DNA from: Candidatus Micrarchaeota archaeon
GTDB taxonomy: Archaea > Micrarchaeota > Micrarchaeia > Burarchaeales > JBFMAP01
DNA length: 61,713 nucleotides
NCBI GenBank assembly: GCA_964632135.1
Contig: CAZWEI010000002.1
Coordinates: 1-61,713, forward strand
Direction of reading: 5' to 3'
The translations under genes and the position numbers were made by a program. Below are positions 2,408 through 51,654 of this stretch, in pieces. How positions within the stretch are numbered: the stretch's first letter is position 1; each line of letters starts with the position of its first letter. The notes beneath the pieces are model-generated. The model was given only the letters and a program-made list of their open reading frames with translations, was not told the origin of the DNA and did not search any database.

Positions 2408-4888
2408 ATGTCCTTTCAGTCTTTACATTATCAGCCTGGAGCTGAAGCAGTGCAAACTCAAGGGGTAGCTGCGCGTCTAGCCTTTGAGAGGCACAAGAAA
2501 GTAGCGGACAAACTCCGAGGCGTGCGGATGGGTGTGGCCGGCGATGTAGGAGAGGAACTTACAAATCTGACGCAAATCGCACGCGCACTAGCTCAACATA
2601 TAACGAAAGACAGGACGTTTGAAAACGGACAGTTTAACATCGAGCTTGTTGGGGATTTGGGGAAACCTCCGAAGGAACTTGTAACTGATACTGTCAGACT
2701 TCTTGTGCTTGGTGGGGAGAAGTATTATCCGGTGGGGTATGGTGTAAAATCAATACCCTCGACTGCATGGGAGGGTTTGGCAAAACTTGGCAGCGTGTCC
2801 CGTACTGAATCGTATAGGCTAGGGCTCAGTCGAGAGAAGTTGCTGGAGAGGTTGGGTGAAATTGAAACGGAAATCGACGAATTGAAAAAGAAAAAAACCA
2901 AAACGGATAAAACTAGTGGCGAGTTCCTTGAAAATACGGTTGGGCTTGTCAGGGCTCTGCGTGAGCGCGCCGAGGTTGTGGAGGAGATACGACGTATAGC
3001 CACAAACATGCGTGTTAAAGGTGCGGACATAGACGCGCATCTGAGTGAGATAAACAGAATCGCTAGAGAGTTGTCCATAAAGATGGATGGCAGTGTAAAC
3101 CCGAGTATAGAAAACCATAAAGAAAAAATGAGGAAAGTGGTGGAACATTCGTGGCCTATTGATTTGAGAGATATCAAACCGCTTTTATACGCCGTCAACA
3201 ACATCGGAAAAGAAGAAGAAAAGCTCGAGAAACTGAAGAAACTGGAAACATTCACAAACGCGTATTTGGACATAGAGGAGAGGAACCTTGGCCGGGATCA
3301 TCTGACGGGAATGAGCAGGCGTGTCGCCAATTTGATAGACGCGTTTGAGATAGAGTGCGAATGCTACCAGAATTGCATTCAGAACCTGCACCAGCAGTGC
3401 ATACAGGATAGACTGCTGGTATTCGTGGGGGATAAACTGGACACCCTTGGAAAGCAGGTTGGGGGGATTAGGAAAAAAATAAACGCCTTGGAGGAGTTGG
3501 CAGCAGAAACAAGTTTGGAGGAGAGATTTGAGCTCCTCTACGAAATAGCAAAGCTTCGGTCTGCATTGTTGAAGAGCGTTTATGATTTGTATAATGAAAC
3601 GTGGAAATTGAGCAAGGATAAACGCCGAGAAAAGAAGTATGGGTATATTCTAGACGAACTGAGTAGAATTTTCTTGGGGTTCGCGTCCGTCACTCCGGAC
3701 AAGGAAATGAAGTTGTGGGAGGGCGTTCTCGGTGATTTTGGTAGAGAATTAAAGAAAACGAGAAAGTTGCGTTATTTGAAAAAGAAGATAAAGGCATATA
3801 ACGCTCACCTAAAAAGCGCAGGGCCTCTTGAGACGGAAATAAAGAGAGAGTATGTGGGCTCTAGGGGCGTGTGGAAGGGAGAAATAAAGACGCTCAAGAC
3901 GGAGCTGGAGACCGCGATAAATAACTTAAAGGAAGACGCACCGATTTTGGGTTATTGCCTGACGACGGCAAACCGCGAGTTACAGCTACACAGCCAACAC
4001 AAGCTAAGGAGACGCCTACACGAAGATGCTAGAGTATATATCACACCTGAGAAGATGGCAGAGGCGCTGTATTTGGCCGTAAATGTGAGTGAAAAAAGCG
4101 AAATAACGCATTTGCAGGATAGGCTGGTCTCGTGCAATGAAAAGATAGGGGTCCTTTTTGAAAAAATAGGGGTTGATTTCTGGAATTGGGCCCGTAACTA
4201 CGAGCACATATACGGGGAACAGACGCTGTTTGACACGGTATGGTCTGATATTATGCATAAAAAAACGGAGAAAACAATACGTGTCAGATATGAACCTAGA
4301 GTCATGGATGGCGTGCGTGGCGTTATGCTCTCCTCTGAGGTTATACCCGAGCTTTTTGTTCCATTCACTGGCCGTCCAAGCACAGAAGTTATCAATAGTG
4401 CCAACATCCTTCATGGGGTTAAGGATCAGGCGATAGGGGATAAAGTTCCCCTCGAATGGTTGGATGCAAGTCTAGAGGCCTATGGAAAAGGCAGATACGC
4501 GCGGTTTGTGGATTTCGTGTCTAACAACTTAGAAGAGCACAGCAAGACGCACGAAAAACTTGTTAAAAACGAAAATGATCTTTTGATTCTAGTTTCCCTA
4601 GCAAGCAGAAGGTTGCTCAATGGATTTACAACCGCGGATTTTGGAGAGAGCCCGCCGATGATTTTGGGTGGGGAGAACACCTTCGAACAAATAATGCGAA
4701 CGCGGGTGTTGAAAGACAAATACAAGTACGATCTTCTCTCGCTAGAAGCCGAGAAGTTCTGCATGGTAGGACTTGTTTCGTGCGTTCTGGATGAAGTACA
4801 CAGGCGCATAAATAGCAGTATTGCTGATGGCCTTAATACGATTTCGAAGAGGCTTGATAGGATGCGTGAGGATGTTGCAGATGCCTAG
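2408..4888 (+). CDS. Large (826 aa) predominantly helical/coiled-coil protein, function unknown
   Basis: Uninterrupted ORF with long K/E/L-rich heptad-like stretches. No P-loop or other catalytic motif was recognised by eye. A TATA-like tttatatatc lies 23-32 nt upstream of the ATG. Confidence 0.7.
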   Translation: MSFQSLHYQPGAEAVQTQGVAARLAFERHKKVADKLRGVRMGVAGDVGEELTNLTQIARALAQHITKDRTFENGQFNIELVGDLGKPPKELVTDTVRLLVLGGEKYYPVGYGVKSIPSTAWEGLAKLGSVSRTESYRLGLSREKLLERLGEIETEIDELKKKKTKTDKTSGEFLENTVGLVRALRERAEVVEEIRRIATNMRVKGADIDAHLSEINRIARELSIKMDGSVNPSIENHKEKMRKVVEHSWPIDLRDIKPLLYAVNNIGKEEEKLEKLKKLETFTNAYLDIEERNLGRDHLTGMSRRVANLIDAFEIECECYQNCIQNLHQQCIQDRLLVFVGDKLDTLGKQVGGIRKKINALEELAAETSLEERFELLYEIAKLRSALLKSVYDLYNETWKLSKDKRREKKYGYILDELSRIFLGFASVTPDKEMKLWEGVLGDFGRELKKTRKLRYLKKKIKAYNAHLKSAGPLETEIKREYVGSRGVWKGEIKTLKTELETAINNLKEDAPILGYCLTTANRELQLHSQHKLRRRLHEDARVYITPEKMAEALYLAVNVSEKSEITHLQDRLVSCNEKIGVLFEKIGVDFWNWARNYEHIYGEQTLFDTVWSDIMHKKTEKTIRVRYEPRVMDGVRGVMLSSEVIPELFVPFTGRPSTEVINSANILHGVKDQAIGDKVPLEWLDASLEAYGKGRYARFVDFVSNNLEEHSKTHEKLVKNENDLLILVSLASRRLLNGFTTADFGESPPMILGGENTFEQIMRTRVLKDKYKYDLLSLEAEKFCMVGLVSCVLDEVHRRINSSIADGLNTISKRLDRMREDVADA

Positions 4889-5303
4889 CAAAACCGCCTG
4901 GAAAAAGATTCAGCACTTTCCTACTGCGGGGATAGTGAGAACGGGGGAGGTTGAGAAGAGACCAGATGCATTTGAACAGGAGAAAATCCGCCGAATCTTG
5001 GAGGAGATACGGACTGGCGAACGCGAGAAAAAAGCGCAGGGCGTTTCTGTTGAATATCTCGCGCAGAAATTGGGGTACGTTTCACGCGGTTATCGTAGAT
5101 TTAACGTAGTGACGAGAAGGAAAGTGCTGCAGGGGGCGTGGGATAAGATGCTGTCGCATATAACGGATGCGGTTTATGTTGGATTTATAAAAGTTAAAAC
5201 TAGTCCAGGGGGGAGAAACATCGTACTAATGCTTACGCCGAAGGGCGAGCGTTTTCTCGCGTCGCATGATGTAGATGTGCAAAAATCCATTAAAAAGCAA
5301 TAG
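4881..5303 (+). CDS. Winged-helix (MarR-like) protein, translationally coupled to the 826-aa gene
   Basis: ORF 4821..5303. ATG 4881 overlaps the upstream stop (ATGCCTAG). VEYLAQKLGYVSRGYRRFN...IKVKTSPGGRNIVLMLTPKGERF is a wHTH-like helix plus beta-wing. Confidence 0.6.
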   Translation: MPSKTAWKKIQHFPTAGIVRTGEVEKRPDAFEQEKIRRILEEIRTGEREKKAQGVSVEYLAQKLGYVSRGYRRFNVVTRRKVLQGAWDKMLSHITDAVYVGFIKVKTSPGGRNIVLMLTPKGERFLASHDVDVQKSIKKQ

Positions 5304-5364
5304 TTTAAAAACCCGCGCGCAAAAACTACTTTTCACAGGCGACAAAAGGCGAGAGGTAATCTAT

Positions 5365-5529
5365 ATGGACCACGGAATCTTCATGAGATGCGAAATTTGC
5401 AAGAGGGACATTCCCTCTCGCGCGGAAAAAATAAGCAAACTAGATTTGGAGGGGTATTCCCACACATTCTGCAAAATATGCTACGCAAATGCGGATGCTG
5501 TGAACGCGGCACTTAATGGAAAGAAATGA
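5365..5529 (+). CDS. Small zinc-ribbon-like protein
   Basis: ORF 5275..5529 trimmed to ATG 5365. It carries CEIC...CKIC cysteine pairs and encodes 54 aa. Confidence 0.4.
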   Translation: MDHGIFMRCEICKRDIPSRAEKISKLDLEGYSHTFCKICYANADAVNAALNGKK

Positions 5530-5548
5530 GGCGATGGCACGCGTGACT

Positions 5549-5599
5549 GATTTGCGCATGCGCGCAAATGGTCCATTTTTCGCGGAGGCGAAAAATTGG
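5549..5599. repeat. Double-hairpin palindromic element, copy a
   Basis: gATTTGCGC-atg-cGCGCAAATGG t CCATTTTTCGC-ggag-GCGAAAAATTGG. Same architecture as the copies at 5800, 22692, 40140, 50996 and 51444. Confidence 0.75.
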
Positions 5600-5625
5600 A
5601 AGGAAAACGACGCGGATTTTATTTG

Positions 5626-5862
5626 ATGGTGTTCGGCGTGCTCCTCGTTATTTTCGGCTTGAGGATGTACATGGACCCGCGCATTTTTGTCATTCTTCTC
5701 GGCGTGGTGTTTTATCTGATTGGTGTAGATAACTACCTTCTAGCGAATTTCAAGGAAAGCATAATTGAAGAGGTCAGGGGCGAGCTCGGGAAGAAAAAGG
5801 CGCAATTTTTGCTACGCAAAAATGCGCATTTGCGCGGAGCGCAAATTGCGCGCGAAAGATAG
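5626..5862 (+). CDS. Small two-TM membrane protein, with its C-terminal tail encoded by a palindromic element
   Basis: ORF 5596..5862. The TTG at 5596 lies inside repeat copy a, so ATG 5626 (MVFGVLLVIFGL) is preferred. There are two hydrophobic spans. The last ~19 aa (AQFLLRKNAHLRGAQIARER) are read from repeat copy b. Confidence 0.4.
   Translation: MVFGVLLVIFGLRMYMDPRIFVILLGVVFYLIGVDNYLLANFKESIIEEVRGELGKKKAQFLLRKNAHLRGAQIARER
5800..5854. repeat. Double-hairpin palindromic element, copy b
   Basis: GCGCAATTTTTGC-tac-GCAAAAATGCGC followed by ATTTGCGC-gga-GCGCAAAT. The 39-nt stretch 5815-5853 matches 22762-22800 apart from 2 compensatory differences. Confidence 0.8.
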
Positions 5863-5875
5863 GATACATAAACTT

Positions 5876-5902
5876 TTTTAGAAATGCTAAGATTATGTTG
5901 GT
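5876..5902 (+). repeat. 27-nt dispersed repeat, copy 1
   Basis: ttttagaaatgctaagattatgttggt. It matches the reverse complement of 9221-9247 at 25 of 27 positions. Confidence 0.6.
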
Positions 5903-6068: not shown

Positions 6069-6734
6069 TTGAGAGGTCTAGTTTTGATTGCATTGATTGT
6101 TCTGATGCCTGCCGTAGTAGCAGGCTTGATAGAGGTACGTTACGTTATTTCTCAACCTCCGGCGCCCGTGGTTTGTGATGTTTTGGAGATTGGTTATTCA
6201 CTTAGTGGCAACGGAACGTATTTTGCTGGAGATAAAATTTTTATAAAAAACATGAGCGTAAGAAATTTACAAGAATTTGACGCAGTAAAGAATATTGAAG
6301 TTAGTGTGGATGTTGTCCAATACCCAGCACGGAATCGGTTTCATCTTAAATCGTTCAATATAACGGCGTTAGGGGGTAAGGAAACGTATATTGTTCCTTA
6401 TGAAAATTATGCTGAAGAACGAGATGGAATTGTGGGTAATTCGTTTAAGATAGAGGAAGGGGGCCGGTACTATCTCGACTTTTTGGTAAGCGGTAATGAA
6501 GAACCGTGCAGATCAGAGTTGTTTAATATATCCACTAGTTATACCAACGAATCTGAAAAAGAAGATTTGTGGCGACAGTTAACAAAACCAGAGACTATTG
6601 CACAGGGCATTATCGGTGTTGTTGTTGCTGGCATCGCCATCATTCTTGAGGTTGTTTTTAAAATTTTTAGTAGAGGGTTGTCGTGGATAATTTCGCGCGC
6701 CAAAAAAATGTTAAGTAGAACCGCGCGTAAGTAA
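6069..6734 (+). CDS. Secreted/membrane-anchored protein with many N-glycosylation sequons
   Basis: 221-aa ORF with a TTG start 11 nt after GAGGTGA. It has an N-terminal hydrophobic signal (LVLIALIVLMPAVVAG), a C-terminal TM (IIGVVVAGIAIILEVVF) and several NxS/T sites. A TATA-like aagtatatataa lies upstream. Confidence 0.6.
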   Translation: MRGLVLIALIVLMPAVVAGLIEVRYVISQPPAPVVCDVLEIGYSLSGNGTYFAGDKIFIKNMSVRNLQEFDAVKNIEVSVDVVQYPARNRFHLKSFNITALGGKETYIVPYENYAEERDGIVGNSFKIEEGGRYYLDFLVSGNEEPCRSELFNISTSYTNESEKEDLWRQLTKPETIAQGIIGVVVAGIAIILEVVFKIFSRGLSWIISRAKKMLSRTARK

Positions 6735-9220: not shown

Positions 9221-9247
9221 ACCAACATAATTTTAGCATTACTAAAA
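9221..9247 (-). repeat. 27-nt dispersed repeat, copy 2 (inverted)
   Basis: The reverse complement reads ttttagtaatgctaaaattatgttggt. It fills the gap between two convergent stop codons and contains the hairpin TTTTAG-cattA-CTAAAA. Confidence 0.6.
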
Positions 9248-9751
9248 TAGTTCTGGCGCTAGTTCCTTTTTGAGCGCTTCTTCATGCTTTTTGATGGACG
9301 CGCGAAGCGCGGTTATTATGAGTGTTAGCTCCGTTGGGTTCTTGCGCTTTTTCTCCGCTTCCGCGCGAAGTTTGGGGACATCCTCGAGCAGAACAATATC
9401 AATATTTTCTTTGAGCGCGCCTAAACGAAGACGTTTTAACTGCTCCTGAATCTCGACGAGCTCGTTTGTCTTATTTCCAACTTCGTTCAGCACTGTCCTT
9501 GCAATCTCATCTCGCGTGTATTTCTTTCCCATTATATTCTGGGTTGCGAAAAAAAACAGTCGCTCATTAACATAATCCATAAAAATTCGCGAGAGAGAAA
9601 GCAGTCCGGCCTCGGTTACCCTTATTGTTGCCCGCCAGTGTATCTCCTGCTTTCCCTCGGCGCGTGGTCCGAGGTGAAGGAAGAAGTCCAATTGTTCGTT
9701 TGGTTTTGGGGGCGGGGGTGTTGCTTTTTTTTCAAGCGTTAGCGAGGCCAT
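9242..9751 (-). CDS. Hypothetical protein
   Basis: 169-aa ORF with coding-like composition. No motif was recognised. Confidence 0.55.
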   Translation of the reverse strand: MASLTLEKKATPPPPKPNEQLDFFLHLGPRAEGKQEIHWRATIRVTEAGLLSLSRIFMDYVNERLFFFATQNIMGKKYTRDEIARTVLNEVGNKTNELVEIQEQLKRLRLGALKENIDIVLLEDVPKLRAEAEKKRKNPTELTLIITALRASIKKHEEALKKELAPELF

Positions 9752-12401: not shown

Positions 12402-12436
12402 AAAAACCACCTTGTAGAATAAGTAATAGTTTATGC
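12402..12436 (-). promoter_or_regulatory. Shared promoter/5'UTR module
   Basis: The minus strand reads gcataaactattacttattctacaaggtggttttt, followed by the GTG. Confidence 0.45.
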
Positions 12437-12465
12437 ATGAACGGATTTATATTACTTGCGCGCGA

Positions 12466-14727
12466 CTAAACCGAGCGCAACTCTGCTTCGACGAAGTCCT
12501 TGAATTTTTGCATCCAAATTGGCTCCACGTCTTTGTAATCGATCGAGCCGTTCTCCTGCTCCTTTTCAGCGAGGAGGAGGTTCGCCTCCGAGTTGCATTT
12601 GAGCACGAAATCTATTTCCGTGAGTTGCGGCGCGTTGAGCGCGTTCGAAGCCTTCGCTATGTCCGAGTAAATCTTGCCCTTGAAAAATGCCTGGAGTATG
12701 TTTTGAAGCGGGGTGAGGCCTGCCTCCTCGCTGCGGCGCTGGAGGACCGGGGGTATGTAGTTCACGTTCAGGTTTTCCTCGAGACTCGCGATGCTCGTGT
12801 TGCTCAGCGACCACGCGGACGCCTCGGGGTTCGCGATGAAGTTGCATTGAAGAGAGGAGGTTTCTGGCGAAGTGCCGCGCTTGTACGTGAAAAGTTCTAT
12901 GAACTGGCGGCGCTCTGCGTCGGTTTCGAGGAGTTGCGCGAGAACGCGGTGGACTGGTCCTCTTCGCTTGAATTTTATTTTTTTCAGGAATGAGAAGCGC
13001 TCTGTTGTGAAAAGCGAGGCAGCAGGAACGCCGAAAACAGTCTCGAGGCGGTCCTGAACGTCCTTTATGCTCTGGCCGTGGAGGTTGTAAAGACAGAAAA
13101 CGCCGGTTTGCGTGTTGAGCAGATTGATGAGCCCCTGTATCGCGAGGCGAGAGCGGAGCTCGTTCACGATGAGGCAGGAGTCGCCCATTCTCAGCGAGGC
13201 GTTCGCCATTGTGAGAAGAGACAGTTCTTTCGAGGATTCTGCTTCCTGATCAGAACTTTGAACGTGCATCGCGCCTATGTGGAACCCGCGCTTCCGGTAC
13301 GCGCGCACAGGAATCTCCTCTATGTCCTGAATCGGGAGTATGCGTTTCTTCGTGCCGATGGAGATTATTTTCGCTGCCGTAAACGCGGTTTTTCCAACTC
13401 CTTTCAAGCCGAGAACTGCTTCGGAGCAGCCGAGGCCGACCATCAAATCGTCGTAGCCAGCGTAGAACGGCGTGAGGCTGCAGAGCTGGATGTACTGTGG
13501 GTACGTGAATGGCGTTTCCTTGTTGACGCGGATTGCGAGTTGGAGTTCGCCGAAAGTCGCGGGCGGGCCCTGTATGTGGCAGCGCAGCCCGAGGCGGTTG
13601 AACATCGTGTCGAGAATCGGGTTCTTGAAATCGAACCTGCGCGATTCTTTCATCGTTGCCGCGATGTTGTGGACCGCGCGCTCCAGAAGTTCCTTGTTGT
13701 ATCTCCAGAGCGTGTGGCACAAACCGAACTTCGCGTGTTCGATGTAGATTGGCGAGTTCTCGCTGTCGAGATAGATGTCGGTTATGTTGTTCCTGTCGAG
13801 CGCCATGTTTTCAATCGGGCTTCCGAGACCGACGACCCAGTTCGCCGCCTCCCTGCCCATCGCCATCGCCTCCTGGAGGGAAAGCGGAACGCCCTGCGTG
13901 GCGGCCATGTCGATGAATTGCTGGCGGTACGCGCGCACCTTAGCATCATACGCAGCCGCGGGGTCTATAACCTCCTCGCGAGAGGACATCCCCACGTCTA
14001 TCGCCTGTTTGAGCATTTTCTGCAGTTGCGGTGAGAGGCTCTGGATGAGGCTGTTCTCGTGTGTGTAGAGGTTCGCCTCGGATTTTTCGAGCGAGTAGAG
14101 TTTTGCGGTTATTCCAAACCCCAAATCATAAACCGCGCCAGGCTCTGTCAATGGTTTTGCATCGGGCGGGAGTTCGAACATCAGCGAGTCGATGAACTGG
14201 AAACTCTTCAGCCCCGCAAGCGAGGCGAACGCCGCGCGCACGTCCTTGTATTTTGAAACGAGTTTGTAGAACTCCGTCGAGGAAATTTTTTCGGAGACGT
14301 TTGCGAGATATGTGGAGAATTTGTGATAGCCGTCCATGAAAATGCCTTTCGTCGGCTCTGGCTCGTGGTAGTCTTTTATCATCTGGAGCGTGAGGACTGG
14401 GCTCATGAAAAGCGCTTCGAACATTTTTTCCAGGAATTTCTTCCGTATGGGGTGGTAGTCGTCTTCCTTGCGGCCGTATGATGCTGGATCGGACATGACG
14501 CGCTCGACTTCGCGGATCAGGTTTGCGTATTCCATTATTACGCGCGTCTTTTCCTCGTTGAACTCGATTATTGTTTCCTCCTCGTATCGCATCGTCTTGA
14601 TGTCGACGTCGGTGAGCATGCTGAGGTCGTGGAGCTGGCTGTTAATGCATTTCGCGCTGAACATCTCGAAAGGGCAGGAGGCGCAGTCCATTACCGCGCG
14701 CGTCCCCTGTACCGAGAGCTTGCACAT
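12466..14727 (-). CDS. Type II/IV secretion (PilB/VirB11/ArlI-family) ATPase, long form
   Basis: 753-aa ORF with Walker A GLKGVGKT, the RMGDSCLIVNELRS (Asp/Walker B box region) and TGVFCLYNLHG (His box). It has a long N-terminal extension with a Cys cluster (CASCPFEMFSAKC). Confidence 0.85.
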   Translation of the reverse strand: MCKLSVQGTRAVMDCASCPFEMFSAKCINSQLHDLSMLTDVDIKTMRYEEETIIEFNEEKTRVIMEYANLIREVERVMSDPASYGRKEDDYHPIRKKFLEKMFEALFMSPVLTLQMIKDYHEPEPTKGIFMDGYHKFSTYLANVSEKISSTEFYKLVSKYKDVRAAFASLAGLKSFQFIDSLMFELPPDAKPLTEPGAVYDLGFGITAKLYSLEKSEANLYTHENSLIQSLSPQLQKMLKQAIDVGMSSREEVIDPAAAYDAKVRAYRQQFIDMAATQGVPLSLQEAMAMGREAANWVVGLGSPIENMALDRNNITDIYLDSENSPIYIEHAKFGLCHTLWRYNKELLERAVHNIAATMKESRRFDFKNPILDTMFNRLGLRCHIQGPPATFGELQLAIRVNKETPFTYPQYIQLCSLTPFYAGYDDLMVGLGCSEAVLGLKGVGKTAFTAAKIISIGTKKRILPIQDIEEIPVRAYRKRGFHIGAMHVQSSDQEAESSKELSLLTMANASLRMGDSCLIVNELRSRLAIQGLINLLNTQTGVFCLYNLHGQSIKDVQDRLETVFGVPAASLFTTERFSFLKKIKFKRRGPVHRVLAQLLETDAERRQFIELFTYKRGTSPETSSLQCNFIANPEASAWSLSNTSIASLEENLNVNYIPPVLQRRSEEAGLTPLQNILQAFFKGKIYSDIAKASNALNAPQLTEIDFVLKCNSEANLLLAEKEQENGSIDYKDVEPIWMQKFKDFVEAELRSV

Positions 14728-21450: not shown

Positions 21451-22824
21451 ATGACCCAGATGGAACTTGCAAAAAGAGGCGTCGCCACCCCCGAGGCCAA
21501 GGCGATAGCAAAAAAAGAAAAGATAAATTTAGACAAACTCGCGCGTTCCATCGCGCGTGGCCGAGCGGTCGTTCTTTCTAGTGGCGTTTTTGTTTGTGGC
21601 GTTGGCGAAAGACTTGCAACGAAGATTAACGCGAACATCGGCGCGTCCCCGGATTACGTCAACGTAAAGGAAGAAATTAAAAAATTAAAAACCGCGGTTG
21701 CCGCTGGCGCAGACACCGTGATGGACCTCAGCATCGCCGGCCCGCTCGACGACATTTTGTGCGCGGTGATAAAAAATGCAAAAATTCCTGTGGGAACTGT
21801 CCCCATCTACCGGGCGGCGCTCGCAGCCACGCAACGCGGTGGAAAAATTTATGATATGAGCGAGGACGAGATGCTCGCCGCGATACAAAAACACATCAAA
21901 CTCGGCACCTCGTTTCTCACGCTCCACGCGGCGATAACGCGGGATGGCATCCGCCTCGCGAGAAAAAGGGATTTGGGGATTGTAAGCAGGGGCGGGTGCT
22001 TTCTCGCGACTTGGATGCTCCACAACAAAAAGGAAAACCCGCTCTATAAAAATTTCGACTACATTCTCGAAACGGCGCACGAAAACGACGTGGTTATAAG
22101 CATAGGCGATGCGCTCAGGCCAGGCGCGCTCAGCGACGCGAACGACGCCGCTCAAATTCACGAATTAAAAATTCAGGGCGAGCTCGCGAGGCGCGCGCAC
22201 GCGGAAAACGTCTCCGTAATCTGCGAGGGCCCGGGCCACATGCCGCTTAGCACGATCGCGCAAAACGTCGCGCTCCAGAAGCGCATCTGCAGGGGCGCGC
22301 CCTATTACGTCCTCGGCCCTCTCGTCACCGACATCGCGGTCGGCTACGACCACATAAACGCCGCGATAGGCGGCGCGCTCGCTGCAGCGGCAGGCGCGGA
22401 TTTCCTGTGCGTGGTCACCCCGAGCGAGCACGTCGCGCTTCCAACCGAAAATGACGTGCGCGAGGGCGTGATCGCCGCGAAACTCGCCGCGCACGCAGCC
22501 GACATCGTGAAACTCAAACGCTCGAAAATTGATTTTGAGATGGGGAAGGCGCGCGCGCAACTCAACTGGGCGAAACAATTCTCGCTCGCGCTCGACCCAG
22601 TGCGTGCGCGCGAGTACAAAAAAAGACGAGGCACAAAGAGCCCCGCGTGCAGCATGTGCGGGGATTTCTGCGCCATCAAACTGATGAGGAACGCGCAATT
22701 TTTGCTTCCAATTTTTCGCTTCGCGAAAAATGGACATCTTCGCGCGACGCGCGAAGCTTGTCGCAAAAATGCGCATTTGCCCGGAGGGCAAATTGCGCGC
22801 CAAACGAAACAGCAATCTTTTTAA
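21451..22824 (+). CDS. thiC: Phosphomethylpyrimidine synthase ThiC, with a repeat-encoded C-terminal extension
   Basis: Typical ThiC blocks are present (DTVMDLS, IGTVPIY, GDALRPG, EGPGHMP, YVLGPLVTDIA.GYDHI, CSMCGDFCA). The last ~40 codons are read through palindromic element copy c. Confidence 0.9.
   Translation: MTQMELAKRGVATPEAKAIAKKEKINLDKLARSIARGRAVVLSSGVFVCGVGERLATKINANIGASPDYVNVKEEIKKLKTAVAAGADTVMDLSIAGPLDDILCAVIKNAKIPVGTVPIYRAALAATQRGGKIYDMSEDEMLAAIQKHIKLGTSFLTLHAAITRDGIRLARKRDLGIVSRGGCFLATWMLHNKKENPLYKNFDYILETAHENDVVISIGDALRPGALSDANDAAQIHELKIQGELARRAHAENVSVICEGPGHMPLSTIAQNVALQKRICRGAPYYVLGPLVTDIAVGYDHINAAIGGALAAAAGADFLCVVTPSEHVALPTENDVREGVIAAKLAAHAADIVKLKRSKIDFEMGKARAQLNWAKQFSLALDPVRAREYKKRRGTKSPACSMCGDFCAIKLMRNAQFLLPIFRFAKNGHLRATREACRKNAHLPGGQIARQTKQQSF
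22692..22800. repeat. Palindromic element, copy c (nested/composite, 109 nt)
   Basis: The outer arms GCGCAATTTTTGC ... GCAAAAATGCGC enclose two extra hairpins (CCAATTTTTCGC-ttc-GCGAAAAATGG and CTTCGCGC-gac-GCGCGAAG). These are followed by ATTTGCCC-gga-GGGCAAAT. Confidence 0.8.
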
Positions 22825-23159: not shown

Positions 23160-23191
23160 ACGAACATAAAAAGAGATATAAATTTGTTCGT

Positions 23192-23224
23192 GTAAAAAAG
23201 ATTACTTGTTCTAGAGGTGGTTTT
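23192..23224 (+). promoter_or_regulatory. Shared promoter/5'UTR module
   Basis: gtaaaaaagattacttgttctagaggtggtttt precedes GTG 23225. Confidence 0.4.
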
Positions 23225-25512: not shown

Positions 25513-26676
25513 ATGGGAGTTCAGTTGGAGTACATACCCGAGGAAAAAAAGGTCATAGTTTCACAACCAGAGTCAGTAAGTTCTCTGGAGAAGGGCTGCT
25601 ACGGCACGATGCATAAGGGCGTGATAACTCTTTTTCCAGAGGAAGCCCTTTACTTGATAGACATACGAAACGGCAGATGCTACGACACGCACGGGAACGA
25701 ACTGAAATTCAACGACCTCGCTGAAAAATTTCCCATTCCAAAACTTATGGCGCGCTATTTCACCTATAAAGATTGGCGCGACAGGGGGCTCGTTCTCAGG
25801 CCGATTTCAGAGGCAGAGGGAAAATACGGCAGAAGTCCGGCGAAAAAATATCCCTCGGGAAAATTCAACGCGCCCAGATACAGCATTCTCGGACTGTTCT
25901 TCCCAGAGGATTTGGTGACTGTCATTGATGACGACGTAGTGGGAAAAGAAATTTACGAGACCTATTGGCTTGGACAGTTCGGTAGTTACAAGGCAGAGCA
26001 GCGCGGGAGGCTCAGCAAGCTCGACGTGTATGAAACGCTTTTCATGATGAAGCACTGCGGGCTCGCGCTCAAGAATGCGAACGAGAGCGAGGTAATAAAG
26101 CTCGCGACAAAGCGCAGGCCGGATTTCAGGAGCATGTACAGCGTTTATGAAGATTGGAGGCTCCGCGGCTTCATTCTGAAAACCGGTTTCAAGTTCGGCA
26201 CCCACTTCCGCCTCTATTTCCCGAAGGCATCGCCGACGCGCGACGTCGATAAATGGATTCATTCAAAACACGTGATACACGTTTTCCCAAGGAGGAGCAA
26301 ACTCCTCATCTCCGAATGGGCGCGCGCAATCCGCGTAGCGCACAGCGTGAAGAAGACGTTCATACTCGCGATTCCGGGCACGACCAGCAAGAAGAAACCA
26401 GTAGAACTAGATTTTCTCCTCTACCACCGCAAGCCCGGGGGCATCGAAACCCCTAAAGAGGGAAAGCCGCGATTCCTGATGTTCTCGCTCAGCGAGGAGG
26501 AATACATCGGGGGCGCAGAACTCGCGGACGCGATAGAGGAGACGAAGAAAATTGGGCTCGAGTTGATGCTTGCGATCAGCGATAGGGAGACGAGCGTCAC
26601 ATACTACCGCGTGCGCAGGTTGGAACTCCCGGGAAGCAAGTACGAATATTACGAGATTGAGTGGGAGCAGCCATAG
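25513..26676 (+). CDS. endA: tRNA-splicing endonuclease, long single-chain multi-unit form
   Basis: ORF trimmed to ATG 25513 (387 aa). The catalytic unit is YEDWRLRGFILKTGFKFGTHFRLY...HSKHVIHVF...RVAHSVKKTFILA. It is preceded by a degenerate unit (YFTYKDWRDRGLVLRP) and followed by ~95 extra residues. Confidence 0.85.
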   Translation: MGVQLEYIPEEKKVIVSQPESVSSLEKGCYGTMHKGVITLFPEEALYLIDIRNGRCYDTHGNELKFNDLAEKFPIPKLMARYFTYKDWRDRGLVLRPISEAEGKYGRSPAKKYPSGKFNAPRYSILGLFFPEDLVTVIDDDVVGKEIYETYWLGQFGSYKAEQRGRLSKLDVYETLFMMKHCGLALKNANESEVIKLATKRRPDFRSMYSVYEDWRLRGFILKTGFKFGTHFRLYFPKASPTRDVDKWIHSKHVIHVFPRRSKLLISEWARAIRVAHSVKKTFILAIPGTTSKKKPVELDFLLYHRKPGGIETPKEGKPRFLMFSLSEEEYIGGAELADAIEETKKIGLELMLAISDRETSVTYYRVRRLELPGSKYEYYEIEWEQP

Positions 26677-33632: not shown

Positions 33633-34253
33633 TTATTCAGAAAAGTAGCTTGGCGAATGCGCGCGCGGCGTGTTGTCGTACTGGTGCCGAGGAGGGAAAT
33701 CATCAAAACCAAATGCGTTTTTCGGTGGCTTCCAGCGACCATAAATCTCATTCAAATCGCGCGAGCCTCCTCCCCCAACCTCCGCGCTTTTAGGCACAAC
33801 GCTGTTGAGAATTTTTACGGCACCCGGTTTCTTTTCACAAATACCTTTGTTGTAGATAAACGTGATATTGGTTGGCGTCGATCCGTCTTTGTTTTTAAAT
33901 GCTTTTTTATCTGCGTCATTCTCTACCAACACAAATATAGGGAGACCTCGCCCCTCTTTATATTTGAGTGCTTTACGAACAAAATTCGCGGGGTAGCCCA
34001 TCACATTAGCCGAAACAATCATAAGATTAATCGCTCCCAGCTCGGTCGATGTCAATCCAAAACCAAACGGCATATCTTCCATGCAACTTCTTACAAAGTA
34101 GGGTTCCAGTTTTCTACCCGTCAATTTCTTAATTTTTCTATATGTTCCTTTGCTACATACGAAAAAAGTTTTGATAGTACCGTCCACAACACCACCCCCA
34201 AGAACAAGTAATATCTTTTGCAGGTGCAAATTTATATTCGTTGCGCGTTTCAA
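33633..34253 (-). CDS. Pseudo-receiver protein (GG-type)
   Basis: KILLVLGGGVVDG, NLMIVSANVMGY (Ser in place of Asp), IFVLVEND and FIYNKG. The stretch looks AT-rich by eye. The start is TTG. Confidence 0.5.
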   Translation of the reverse strand: MKRATNINLHLQKILLVLGGGVVDGTIKTFFVCSKGTYRKIKKLTGRKLEPYFVRSCMEDMPFGFGLTSTELGAINLMIVSANVMGYPANFVRKALKYKEGRGLPIFVLVENDADKKAFKNKDGSTPTNITFIYNKGICEKKPGAVKILNSVVPKSAEVGGGGSRDLNEIYGRWKPPKNAFGFDDFPPRHQYDNTPRAHSPSYFSE

Positions 34254-40110: not shown

Positions 40111-40268
40111 GAGCGCAGCCACGCCGCGGCAACTGCGCTCCAATTTTTGCCTCGAGGCAAAAATGGACCATTTGCGGTGAAGCCGCAAATTGGTCGAGCG
40201 CAGTTGGTCCGCCTCGAAGCGGACCTGCCCGTTCGAACGGGCAGCCGCGTGTTGGCGGCGGCTGCGCT
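40111..40268. repeat. Nested multi-hairpin block containing palindromic element copy d
   Basis: Outer stem GAGCGCAGCC/GGCTGCGCT. Inner perfect 10-bp stem AACTGCGCTC/GAGCGCAGTT encloses CCAATTTTTGCC-tcga-GGCAAAAATGG and CCATTTGCGG-tgaa-CCGCAAATTGG (40140-40193). Three more hairpins follow: GGTCCGC-ctcgaa-GCGGACC, TGCCCG-ttcgaa-CGGGCA and GCCGC-gtgttg-GCGGC. Confidence 0.8.
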
Positions 40269-40320
40269 ATTGGGCATTTCTACCGAGCACGCTGAACGAT
40301 AACTATAAATACAAGAGAGT

Positions 40321-40361
40321 GAATAAAATAATACTTATTCTACAAACGACAGAGGGAGAAT
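40321..40361 (+). promoter_or_regulatory. Shared promoter/5'UTR module (variant)
   Basis: gaataaaataatacttattctacaaacgacagagggagaat precedes ATG 40362. Confidence 0.4.
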
Positions 40362-50232: not shown

Positions 50233-51654
50233 TCAACAACAGTAAAGGTTTTTTGGAATCTTCCCTTCCTCGATTTCGCCGAACGGGTTTCCGTACTTCC
50301 GCACGTTTTCCATCATCTCCTTGTTCGTCTCTAGTTCGAACCCGCCCTTCACCATGCGCGCGCGGAGTTTTTTAATGAGCGCTGGAATGTCGATTTCCGC
50401 AGGGCAGTCCTCCTTGCAGCCCGAGCACGCGAGGCACAGGTACGCGCGCAAGTTGTTTTTATCGCGCGGGCTTGCTATCACGTGCGAGATGAGCCCCTTC
50501 CCACCGGCGCGCTCGAACCCGAAGAACTCCGCGAGCTGGTGGTACGAGGGGCAGGCGTTATCACAAGCACCGCAGTTTATGCAGTACATCAGTTCGCCCA
50601 ACCCCTCTCTTATCATCTCGCTCCTTCCATTGTCAAGCAGAACTAGGTAAACCTCCTTCGCGCCCTGCGCGCCGAGCACTGCTTTGTTCTGGATGTCCGC
50701 GGTCTTGCTCGGTCCGTTTATTATGCTTATGTACACCGGAGCCTCGCGCCCGGTTCCCCAGATCGCGTCGCACTTTGCGACGAGAAGCGCGTCCTCGAGC
50801 GTGGGAACGAGCTTCTCAAATCCCGCGACCACGATGTGCTTGTCAGGATAGCGCGAAACGAGCGAGATGTTTCCCTCGTTCTCGAGCACAACAATATTTC
50901 CGTCGCTCGTGAGCGCGTTCGCACCCGTTATCCCTATCTTGCTTTTCGTTATCTTCTCGCGCAAATACCCGCGCGCAAATCCAACAATCTCTTCCGCAAT
51001 TTTGCCTTCGGCAAAATGCGGCGCATTTTCGCTCCGCGAAAATTGCGCCGGTTTCGCGCTCACCTTCGCGCCGAATTTCTCCCTGAGCGCGCTCGCCATC
51101 TCCTCTGGGGTAAGATGCATCGCCGGAATTACCGGGTGTATCCCCTCAACACCGCAGACCTGCGTCAGGAAGTCGCCGAGGTCGGTTTCAACAATTTCAA
51201 CCCCGCACTCCTCCAAAAACTTGTTAAGTTCGATTTCCTTGCACGCGTTCGATTTTGATTTCACGGCAAGTTTTTCTTTCCCGATGATTCCCAGAATTAT
51301 GTCGCGCGCATCCTCCGCATCCTTCGCCTCGAGCACGCGCACGCCGTTCCTTTTGAAGTTTTCAATCGCGGTTTTTTTCAACCTCTCGATATTCTCGATT
51401 GCGCCTTTCTTTATCGCGCGCAGTTTCTCGCGCAGCGCGTCCTCCAATTTGCGCTTTGCGCAAATGGACCATTTGTCCTGCGGGACAAATTGGTCGTCAA
51501 TTTTCGCGAGTATTGCGTCCCTGTTCTCGTTGGTTTCCCTGATGACCTTTAGCATCGCCTCCCGGAATTTCTTCTTCTCCGCGAGCTGCCTCTCCACTTC
51601 TTTTACTATTTCATCCATCGCATCGCCATCCAGCCCACGAACCCATATACTCAA
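50233..51654 (-). CDS. LutB-like iron-sulfur protein (LUD domain plus 2x[4Fe-4S]) carrying two intragenic palindromic elements
   Basis: KSKSNACKEIELNKFLEECGVEIVETDLGDF, IGITGANALTSDGNIVVLENEGN, CINCGACDNACP and CLACSGCKEDCP. Confidence 0.8.
   Translation of the reverse strand: MSIWVRGLDGDAMDEIVKEVERQLAEKKKFREAMLKVIRETNENRDAILAKIDDQFVPQDKWSICAKRKLEDALREKLRAIKKGAIENIERLKKTAIENFKRNGVRVLEAKDAEDARDIILGIIGKEKLAVKSKSNACKEIELNKFLEECGVEIVETDLGDFLTQVCGVEGIHPVIPAMHLTPEEMASALREKFGAKVSAKPAQFSRSENAPHFAEGKIAEEIVGFARGYLREKITKSKIGITGANALTSDGNIVVLENEGNISLVSRYPDKHIVVAGFEKLVPTLEDALLVAKCDAIWGTGREAPVYISIINGPSKTADIQNKAVLGAQGAKEVYLVLLDNGRSEMIREGLGELMYCINCGACDNACPSYHQLAEFFGFERAGGKGLISHVIASPRDKNNLRAYLCLACSGCKEDCPAEIDIPALIKKLRARMVKGGFELETNKEMMENVRKYGNPFGEIEEGKIPKNLYCC
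50996..51049. repeat. Double-hairpin palindromic element, copy e (intragenic, 54 nt = 18 codons)
   Basis: GCAATTTTGCC-ttc-GGCAAAATGC and GGCGCATTTTCGC-tcc-GCGAAAATTGCGCC. On the minus strand it is translated as ..AQFSRSENAPHFAEGKIA.. Confidence 0.75.
51444..51493. repeat. Double-hairpin palindromic element, copy f (intragenic)
   Basis: CCAATTTGCGC-tt-tGCGCAAATGG a CCATTTGTCC-tgcg-GGACAAATTGG. On the minus strand it is translated as ..DQFVPQDKWSICAKRKL.. Confidence 0.75.

Follow-up and report, generated by a model that had tools for sequence, protein, structure and literature searches.

Rickettsia palindromic elements (RPEs) are bacterial elements of about 100-150 bp; some ten sequence families of them are distinguished, and a conserved peptide characterises each (Ogata et al. 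2000, via PMC10969869). The elements described here come from a 61,713-nt stretch of DNA of a Micrarchaeota archaeon, hereafter the window. They resemble RPEs in being short palindromic repeats dispersed in the small, gene-dense genome of a host-dependent microbe, in forming in-frame insertions in unrelated, intact housekeeping genes at positions tolerated by the fold, and in having no transposase assigned to them (PMC10969869). Unlike RPEs, they are archaeal, have a length of 46-54 nt (about 100 nt in composites) and consist of four feet and two covarying hairpins that are usually free of stop codons in six frames. By length and host they fall outside the RPE families and a relationship by sequence is not expected; the parallel with Rickettsia drawn in an earlier note on this DNA holds as an analogy and not as membership. 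The same note knew of no archaeal equivalent, and none was found in the searchable literature.

Double-hairpin and repetitive hairpin-forming elements in the mitochondria of fungi and sponges, as well as the GC clusters of yeast, are mostly intergenic and occasionally lie in nad2, nad5 and var1; they are reportedly kept in transcripts and avoid structurally important parts of genes (PMC2800124). Our elements share with them a small size, mobility, the presence of one or two hairpins and an occasional position inside protein genes. However, the mitochondrial elements are organellar, are usually AT-rich or GC clusters, have no motif in common with ours and enter protein genes only exceptionally, whereas coding sequence holds three to four of the six loci in the window.

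REP and BIME sequences form imperfect hairpins, 20-40 nt in length, in which one unpaired base and the short feet are conserved; they often stand in head-to-head pairs and are extragenic by definition. For REPs, the gene of a cognate HUH enzyme is known. Neither REPs nor the palindrome-associated elements (PATE) derived from IS200/IS605 have long terminal inverted repeats or make a target duplication, and members of the IS200/IS605 family enter DNA on the 3' side of a fixed, short motif. The short imperfect palindrome, the conserved foot and the unpaired base are all found in our elements, but their coding insertions are common and there is no RAYT (HUH Y1) gene within the 62 kb.

Classical prokaryotic MITEs, described among archaea in Sulfolobus, Haloquadratum and Altiarchaeum, reportedly reach very high densities in some DPANN genomes and occasionally form in-frame ORF fusions; they have terminal inverted repeats matching a parent IS, a target duplication of fixed length and usually 50-500 bp (PMC10969869, PMC11602168). 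Our elements are likewise non-autonomous, multicopy and structured. Their termini are short (6-8 nt), the overlaps at their junctions are, in contrast to those of MITEs, variable (2-4 nt), and no parent IS was found among the window ORFs.

Insertions e and f in the LutB-like gene

Features of the window that carry or form the double-hairpin elements
Feature	Position	Strand	Description
LutB/LldF-like gene	50233..51618	(-)	LUD domain and 4Fe-4S dicluster; 461 aa; hosts insertions e and f
Copy e	50994..51050	(-)	54-nt (18-codon) in-frame double-hairpin insertion; residues 191-208
Copy f	51443..51495	(-)	51-nt (17-codon) in-frame double-hairpin insertion; residues 42-58
Composite element, thiC	22693..22794	(+)	102-nt (34-codon) in-frame insertion; nested and adjacent hairpins
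Double-hairpin copy	5800..5851	(+)	Last ~20 codons (AQFLLRKNAHLRGAQIARER) of small membrane-protein ORF 5626..5862; candidate insertion or original tail
Double-hairpin copy	5545..5601	.	Intergenic; 5' foot mutated to TGATTT; 54 bits in the covariance model
Composite copy	40130..40225	.	Intergenic; 75 bits in the covariance model; fold z = -7.7

As judged from its domains and predicted fold, the host gene is a member of the LutB/LldF family, in which a LUD domain is followed by a 4Fe-4S dicluster domain. Pfam identified LUD_dom (1.9e-40) and Fer4_8, NCBIfam gave LutB/LldF and LdhH matches below the equivalog cut-off, and Foldseek matched the predicted structure, which is LutB-like, to LutB 9a6l_B with a TM of 0.78. 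The partner genes LutA and LutC are not adjacent, and lactate oxidation is a candidate role at most. The gene order DZR zinc ribbon, LutB, PAP2 is common to the window and to two related loci, L001 from the 89%-identical Micrarchaeota MAG141 and the 77%-identical L002. The ORF 50233..51654(-) is uninterrupted and contains both copies; comparison with orthologs places the start at the ATG at 51618, and the deposited record calls the product at the resulting 461 aa.

The earlier note had claimed that palindromic elements sit in frame inside this gene, and their sequence, their folds and the uninterrupted ORF are as claimed and above chance. Its coordinates, 50996-51049 for copy e and 51444-51493 for copy f, are right within 1-2 nt, as is the length of 54 nt for e, but f has 51 nt and not 50 nt; the translations that it quoted, PAQFSRSENAPHFAEGKIAEE and DDQFVPQDKWSICAKRKLE, are correct. 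On the coding strand, copy e reads GCG CAATTTTCGC-GGA-GCGAAAATG CGCCG CATTTTGCC-GAA-GGCAAAATTG CG and encodes AQFSRSENAPHFAEGKIA, and copy f reads GAC CAATTTGTCC-CGCA-GGACAAATG GTC CATTTGCGC-AAA-GCGCAAATTG and encodes DQFVPQDKWSICAKRKL. The longest T run in the two copies is T4. In DNA alignments with orthologs, the insertions measure 54 nt for e (50997-51050, with a junction ambiguity of 3 nt) and 51 nt for f (51445-51495, with an ambiguity of 2 nt). Folded as DNA, each forms two adjacent hairpins, at -23.8 kcal/mol for e and -18.6 kcal/mol for f (z = -4.1 and -5.8; none of 200 shuffles was as good), and their covariance-model scores are 47 and 64 bits, respectively.

We aligned 120 LutB homologs and compared 119 of them against the window protein. 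The 18 residues of copy e are missing in 118 of the 119, the only other carrier being P0001, and the 17 residues of copy f are missing in all of them (119/119); no unrelated lineage has these segments. At the DNA level, the window and MAG141 share copy e, and its site is empty in L002 (AAAC/CGGAGG, the slash marking the insertion point). Copy f is present in the window only, and both L001 and L002 have the empty site GGAC/GAGGAT. The gaps of 54 nt and 51 nt in the ortholog DNA are clean and their flanks are conserved. These sequence comparisons show that copies e and f are two separate insertion events, and the measured alignment together with the empty-site DNA bears out the earlier suggestion that e was inserted between the HP..PA.H region and the IGITG block.

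Both insertion sites are a loop or a helix cap in the predicted structures, in agreement with the earlier expectation of surface loops. In the insert-free ortholog, the site of copy e lies between residues 173/174, where helix 173-190 has its N-cap, and that of copy f is a 3-residue coil separating helices 3-38 and 42-58. In the model of the window protein (pLDDT 85.6, against 88.5 for the insert-free ortholog) the inserts are coil or low-confidence segments, copy e being coil with pLDDT <50. The predicted LutB peptides across the insert junctions are VSAKPAQFSR, GKIAEEIVGFAR, IDDQFVPQDK and KLEDALR.

Substitution patterns indicate that the gene is under strong purifying selection: dN/dS against the two closest orthologs is 0.058 and 0.097, third codon positions hold 138 of the 179 differences, and none of the 80 invariant columns in the alignment of the family has changed. 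Because dN/dS is 0.058, the invariant Cys and LUD residues are kept and a 461-aa product is on record, the gene is not a pseudogene, which the earlier note had named as a possible refutation. It is extremely improbable that the hairpins are assembly errors or that the gene is decaying. Copy f is known from a single assembly, assemblers can be misled by repeats that form hairpins, and copies lie next to the ends of several MAG141 contigs; however, copy e occurs in two independent assemblies and the family in several independent MAGs and metagenomes, and an intact ORF with the selection described above does not fit decay.

The element family and its compatibility with coding

The element is a double hairpin of 46-54 nt, with the layout CAATTT-stem-loop-stem-AAATG / CATTT-stem-loop-stem-AAATTG. 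Its four feet (CAATTT...AAATG and CATTT...AAATTG) are conserved and 2-5 nt separate the two hairpins, while the inner stems, of which there are 20 distinct sequences, vary among copies yet stay complementary. Between the arms CAATTT and AAATG, one A per hairpin stays unpaired. The termini, (C)CAATTT / AAATTG(G), are inverted over 6-8 nt only and are part of the two hairpins. Of the 14 hairpins that the hairpin scanner detected in the window, 12 belong to the family and are spread over six loci; 100 first-order Markov simulations of the window put the chance expectation at 0.61 hairpins (maximum 3). A regular expression, the hairpin scanner and the covariance model all returned the same six loci, and Rfam had no match to the element at the gathering threshold or at E up to 1.

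The third insertion with a known empty site is the composite near the 3' end of thiC (21451..22824), where the covariance-model matches span 22706-22798. The thiC ortholog of MAG141 (P0122, locus L035) has the empty site GAAAC/GCACGCC, with MRNA..QTKQ conserved either side. The earlier note had reported related peptides at 5800-5862 and at the ThiC end; the peptides are correct, but the ThiC element is an internal in-frame insertion rather than a replaced tail. As for the intergenic loci, the copy at 5545..5601 begins about 16 nt past the stop of ORF 5275..5529, and in the composite at 40130..40225 the outer stem AACTGCGCTC/GAGCGCAGTT surrounds a double-hairpin core at 40138-40195; a further hairpin, GGTCCGC..GCGGACC, comes after it as the third.

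Among 185,579 genomes scanned there were 32 pattern matches. Three Micrarchaeota MAGs hold 20 of these, each with complementary stems, whereas the 12 in bacterial genomes, as well as about 40 metagenome matches, lack stem complementarity and are chance matches. Among the genomes scanned, genuine copies are thus limited to these three MAGs. Across the copies, 97.4% of base-pair cells were paired (slid controls reached 48% at most), 10 pairs had changed on both sides and none of 500 shuffles matched, but only sequences with >=4 paired positions in each hairpin had been admitted, so that the paired share is inflated. Cleaner evidence for conserved stems than this count is, at the sequence level, the contrast of the Micrarchaeota matches with the other pattern matches, to which no filter was applied. 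Further copies are carried by metagenome contigs of the sample from which L002 came. MAG PPR_0038 has five nearly identical copies, which points to recent spread. In the YggS/PLPHP-like gene of MAG141, an internal copy forms an extra segment of about 18 residues compared to solved structures. For the intergenic copy of MAG141 (L001 18301-18353), the counterpart region of the window was too diverged to align and no empty site was derived. Viral contigs were scanned for the element with 0 matches, and a BLAST of the composite copy against plasmids gave none.

All six frames are free of stops in 20 of 28 copies; the same is true of 5.9% of 50-mers drawn at random from genomic DNA and of 0.08% of shuffles. 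The three measured intragenic insertions, of 54, 51 and 102 nt, all have a length divisible by three and no stop in the frame of the host gene. Because the copies are stop-free in most cases, survival of the protein needs only a length divisible by three and a tolerant position. All five in-CDS copies that were checked against the ORF share the phase CAA-TTT, which gives Gln-Phe. Hydropathy does not clearly account for this phase, since the mean GRAVY of the three phases is -0.33, -0.57 and +0.17 and the phase used is not the most hydrophilic. A rule by which intragenic copies would avoid a T5 that could terminate archaeal transcription was rejected, since T5 occurs in the coding strand of the YggS-like and ThiC copies.

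It is very unlikely that the inserts are intervening sequences cut from the mRNA, for example relaxed bulge-helix-bulge introns, and are never translated. Some archaea have introns in protein genes, and splicing endonucleases of the Micrarchaeota type are reported to have a broad substrate range. The window itself contains the gene (25513..26676) of a tRNA-intron endonuclease of 387 aa, with both the N-terminal and the catalytic domain, and the elements are strongly structured as RNA. However, DNA that is excised could be of any length and contain stops, yet the measured inserts are all multiples of three and open. When folded as RNA with 30-nt flanks, they form two plain hairpins, with no helix-bulge-helix over the insertion boundaries; the archaeal intron motif of two 3-nt bulges and a 4-bp helix at exon-intron boundaries is absent. 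We infer from frame and length alone that the inserts are translated rather than removed.

Probable mobility, constancy and significance

We consider it probable that the element is or was mobile in one Micrarchaeota clade, and that e and f are in-frame insertions of it that are translated and tolerated. Copy f entered the three-residue turn between the two long N-terminal helices of LutB, and copy e the loop ahead of the helix preceding the IGITG strand. Transcription and translation most likely run through both copies, which would add surface loops of 17 and 18 residues to the protein, and the enzyme presumably stays functional. Neither a transposase nor a RAYT or TnpB-like gene was found among the approximately 52 ORFs of the window by Pfam or synteny annotation, and the gene list of L001 contains no transposase domain. 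The three pairs of empty and filled sites show no target duplication of fixed length; the junction overlaps are GA (2 nt), CGG (3 nt) and GC or GCGC (2-4 nt). In left-justified gaps, AC stands just 5' of the insertion in all three cases (AAAC/, GGAC/, GAAC/), with the limit that there are only three sites and the junctions can be shifted. The copies may have been spread by a trans-acting enzyme recognising the hairpin-plus-foot structure, and later selection would have purged all copies except those in frame and in loops. Our guess, by analogy to REP elements and IS200/IS605 derivatives, is that this enzyme would be specific for hairpins in single-strand DNA, because the termini are short, a base is bulged, a fixed target duplication is lacking and AC lies 5' of the three insertions.

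The mobile origin does not by itself account for the constancy of copy e. Its 52-nt core is 100% identical in the window and MAG141, whereas elsewhere in the gene 13.9% of sites differ, with a dS of 0.73, and the two lineages differ at 46% of synonymous sites. Only one difference, at the ambiguous edge, was observed in copy e, compared to 7.7 expected under gene-average constraint and about 25 under neutrality. Every other stretch of 54 nt in the LutB gene has at least two differences (P about 4e-4 to 4e-3 under gene-average constraint). The identity of the core despite this dS suggests constraint at the nucleotide level. The label 'selfish' is used here with a reservation, because a neutral passenger should have diverged and the core of e is unchanged.

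The elements could instead be structured nucleic-acid modules that are kept by the host, with the intragenic copies under selection on their nucleotide sequence as protein-binding sites, pauses in transcription or translation, or signals for mRNA stability or termination. We regard this as quite unlikely. Besides the constancy of e, it would fit the Gln-Phe phase of the in-CDS copies, the retention of the feet CAATTT/AAATG/CATTT/AAATTG in a contig of 34% GC with AT-rich stems, and the position of copies directly at gene ends in that contig and at three window loci. Yet the argument from conservation is derived from a single orthologous pair, and the placement resembles scatter, with one gene hit twice, different genes hit in different genomes, and presence or absence between close relatives; nor do the elements match a known RNA family. 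Since a mobile origin is needed either way, host retention would be an addition to the main explanation, not a replacement. A combined history, which we find unlikely, is that the elements are substrates of a hairpin-recognising system in Micrarchaeota and were then held constant in genes by selection on structure. This would explain the constancy of e, the feet in the 34% GC genome and the single reading phase. If true, the elements would be a new class of archaeal element that is compatible with coding by its build, being stop-free in six frames, and that gives functional structure to mRNAs or DNA within genes.

On mobile insertion, the reading that we prefer, the elements are an archaeal counterpart, in a Micrarchaeota (DPANN) archaeon, of the 'selfish DNA inside genes' of Rickettsia. 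In-frame palindromic DNA in working genes has hitherto been seen as a peculiarity of Rickettsia with scattered organellar parallels. DPANN archaea, which are tiny, gene-dense and host-dependent, now add clean before-and-after sites for it. This suggests a general outcome of genome reduction and weak selection, in which an element that is short of intergenic space evolves to be harmless to proteins. In practice, such inserts inflate protein lengths, appear as lineage-specific loops and break MAG contigs. They provide dated insertion markers for Micrarchaeota lineages and a case in which the origin of new peptide loops from non-coding DNA can be tested, and the constancy of copy e offers a direct route to asking whether such elements gain function.

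Copies e and f in the LutB-like gene

The earlier note had flagged two in-frame palindromic segments, copies e and f, in the LutB-like gene. Both form two adjacent hairpins (DNA folding z of -4.1 and -5.8), none of 200 shuffles folded as well as either copy, and the translations proposed for them were correct. The note had also suspected that they were insertions, and this was confirmed by protein alignments and by empty sites, i.e. orthologous positions without an insertion, in the DNA of orthologs. In a search that covered 5.8 billion proteins, the nearest relatives found were P0001 from Micrarchaeota MAG141 (89% identity, 444 aa) and P0002 from a JGI sediment contig (77% identity, 426 aa), and the remaining homologs had identities of at most ~55% and a median length of 421 aa. 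In alignments of 17 and of 120 sequences, AQFSRSENAPHFAEGKIA (copy e) was confined to the window and P0001, and DQFVPQDKWSICAKRKL (copy f) to the window alone. In a three-way DNA alignment with the loci of these orthologs, L001 and L002, respectively, the site of copy f was a clean 51-nt gap in both (GGAC/GAGGAT) and that of copy e was a clean 54-nt gap in L002 alone (AAAC/CGGAGG). The alignment leaves an ambiguity at the junctions of 3 nt (CGG) for copy e and 2 nt (GA) for copy f. Because the gap at e is found only in L002 and that at f in both relatives, copy e is older than the divergence of the window genome from MAG141, and copy f younger.

The ORF (50233..51654, minus strand) is not interrupted. 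Its start, supported by the orthologs and the deposited product, is the ATG at 51618, which gives 461 aa. The product is of the LutB/LldF type, with LUD and 4Fe-4S domains (Pfam LUD_dom, 1.9e-40; NCBIfam LutB/LdhH), and Foldseek matched it to LutB 9a6l_B with a TM of 0.78. Compared with the MAG141 gene, dS was 0.73 and dN/dS was 0.058, with 138 of the 179 differences at third codon positions; dN/dS was 0.097 against L002. In the alignment, the protein keeps every family-invariant residue, including the cysteine motifs. The low dN/dS, the third-position bias and the retained residues show that the gene is functional. The order DZR zinc ribbon - LutB - PAP2 is kept at both ortholog loci; no lutA or lutC adjoins the gene, which stands alone. 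The protein (50233-51618; homologs P0003-P0120) shows ~50% identity between DPANN archaea (Micr-, Woese-, Pace- and Aenigmarchaeota) and CPR bacteria (Patescibacteria, Shapirobacteria, Minisyncoccales), which is unusually high for proteins from different domains of life.

The AlphaFold models were confident, with a pLDDT of 85.6 for that of the window protein and 88.5 for that of P0002, which lacks both inserts. In the window model, copy e (residues 191-208) is a coil with pLDDT <50, and copy f (residues 42-58) has two long helices on either side and a pLDDT of ~67. In P0002, helices 3-38 and 42-58 are joined by a three-residue turn that holds the f site (residues 41/42), and helix 173-190 has the e site (residues 173/174) at its N-cap, just past coil 166-172. 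Judging from these positions, both insertions are predicted to sit at junctions of secondary-structure elements.

The 52-nt core of copy e (window 50997-51048 vs L001 9688-9736) is identical in the window and MAG141, whereas 13.9% of sites differ over the whole gene, and the 60-nt flanks of the copy have 9 and 8 differences. Copy e is the most conserved DNA stretch of the gene; every other 54-nt stretch has at least 2 differences. One difference, at an ambiguous edge, was observed in copy e, against 7.7 under gene-average constraint and ~25 under neutrality. This constancy concerns a single locus, and we record it as an observation without drawing on it further. It might reflect selection on the element's nucleotide sequence or structure, correction of stem mutations via the hairpin template, or a recent and very short exchange confined to the element, all three being candidates.

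The double-hairpin family and its distribution

Every copy has four short feet and two hairpins in the layout CAATTT(T0-2)-stem-loop-stem-(A0-2)AAATG and CATTT-stem-loop-stem-AAATTG, separated by 2-5 nt (frequently GAC or GTC), with one unpaired A in every hairpin. The same six window loci were obtained with a regex, a hairpin scanner and a covariance model run with filters off, and the scanner found 12 family hairpins in the window against 0.6 expected by chance.

Double-hairpin loci of the window and of metagenome contig L057
Sequence	Locus	Coordinates	Remark
Window	Double hairpin	5545-5601	
Window	Double hairpin	5800-5851	Coding copy
Window	Composite	22693-22798	thiC insertion
Window	Composite	40138-40195	Reaching 40225
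Window	Copy e	50994-51048	LutB-like gene
Window	Copy f	51442-51495	LutB-like gene
L057	Double hairpin	1309-1359	Intergenic, at gene end
L057	Double hairpin	3491-3535	Intergenic, at gene end
L057	Double hairpin	6370-6417	Intergenic, at gene end

The inner stems comprise 20 distinct sequences. In 29 distinct copies, pre-filtered for paired stems, 97.4% of base-pair cells were paired and both-side changes occurred at 10 of 20 pairs; none of 500 shuffles matched these values and slid controls reached at most 48%. Because of the filter, the unfiltered contrast between Micrarchaeota and other hits is a cleaner test of stem pairing. The four feet (the short conserved ends) alone were used as a pattern on one genome per species (185,579 species), giving 32 matches, of which 20 were in three Micrarchaeota MAGs (MAG141 12, PPR_0038 7, WY4.bin88 1). 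Stems were complementary in all 20. The other 12 were singletons in unrelated bacteria, without stem complementarity.

Among metagenome contigs, the same pattern found genuine copies just in the source sample of L002 and on one other contig, L057 (Ga0315281_10000317, 66-kb, 34% GC), from a sister sediment sample. The L057 copies have the four feet of the family and AT-rich stems; the contig itself is AT-rich and looks unrelated. PPR_0038 holds five nearly identical copies within a larger repeat of ~200 nt, and their near-identity suggests recent spread or amplification. At its loci L014, L015, L018, L025, L032 and L033, the double hairpin is the core, with more hairpins on either side. In MAG141, one copy with identical flanks is present on two contigs, at or near the contig end (L004 37-92 and L029 6530-6585); this assembly was probably fragmented by the hairpin repeats.

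The window also carries intergenic AT-rich inverted repeat pairs that lie far apart (5871-5902 / 9221-9252; 23176-23217 / 34196-34237; 12412-12437 / 40320-40345). They are 26-42 nt long and 81-91% complementary, and their appearance suggests shared promoter or terminator motifs and not hairpin-family membership.

Coding copies

In window thiC (21451..22824), a 102-nt in-frame composite of family hairpin modules is found at 22693-22794, 9 codons before the stop. The MAG141 ortholog has an empty site (GAAAC/GCACGCC) and a protein ending in ...MRNAR-QTKQ*, while the window ThiC ends in ...MRNA[34 residues]RQTKQQSF*; the original stop TAA is now CAA, adding 3 residues. A fourth coding copy lies in a YggS/PLPHP-like gene of MAG141 (L005 1633-1683), whose product has ~18 residues extra compared with solved structures. 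Two further copies, L006 and L007, probably fall in the C-terminal portions of two genes, one of the DHH family and one of the HAD family.

The insertions measured against empty sites were 54, 51 and 102 nt (n=3). Core lengths vary from 46 to 54 nt across the family, and thus a multiple-of-three length is not a built-in property. Stops were absent from all six frames in 20 of 28 copies, compared with 5.9% of 50-mers picked at random from the same loci and with 0.08% of shuffles matched for composition. Despite most copies being open in six frames, all coding copies that could be checked (e, f, 5800-5851, 22693-22794 and L005 1633-1683) are read in the same phase, CAA-TTT, or Gln-Phe. Hydropathy was compared and gives no clear explanation of this phase.

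Removal of the inserts from RNA is unlikely, because their lengths and frames are constrained and RNA folds showed no bulge-helix-bulge motif across the insertion boundaries. Elsewhere in the window, 25513-26676 encodes a tRNA-intron endonuclease of 387 aa whose single chain has both the N-terminal and the catalytic domain, possibly the multi-unit form reported from ultrasmall archaea.

Insertion and related systems

No transposase-like domain was found in the window ORFs or the syntenic MAG141 contig, no constant target duplication in the three comparisons of empty and filled sites, no viral or plasmid copy in a viral contig scan and plasmid BLAST, and no matching Rfam family. About half of the ~40 window ORFs scanned are without a Pfam match (E up to 1e-4), including 2408-4888 (826 aa), 12466-14727 (753 aa) and ~18 others. 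HUH enzymes specific for single-strand hairpins (REP/RAYT, IS200/IS605 derivatives) have substrates with comparable features. The element would resemble these substrates in its conserved feet, invariant unpaired base, covarying stems, junction overlaps that vary from 2 to 4 nt among the three measured insertions, and the ..AC that precedes 3 of 3; we regard this comparison as a lead.

In organelles, mitochondrial double-hairpin elements and GC clusters have an analogous structure (PMC2800124). Archaeal MITEs, with high densities in some DPANN genomes, appear in reviews and surveys of prokaryotic MITEs, which contain no description of an in-frame palindromic archaeal family (PMC10969869, PMC11602168). 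The known system that comes closest is the Rickettsia palindromic element, which likewise has in-frame copies at tolerated positions of intact housekeeping genes in a small, host-dependent genome. Its domain of life, size and architecture are different, so the relation is one of analogy and not of membership. Our comparisons show that members of a structured repeat family inserted repeatedly and precisely in these genomes, and that in-frame copies in loops then survived.
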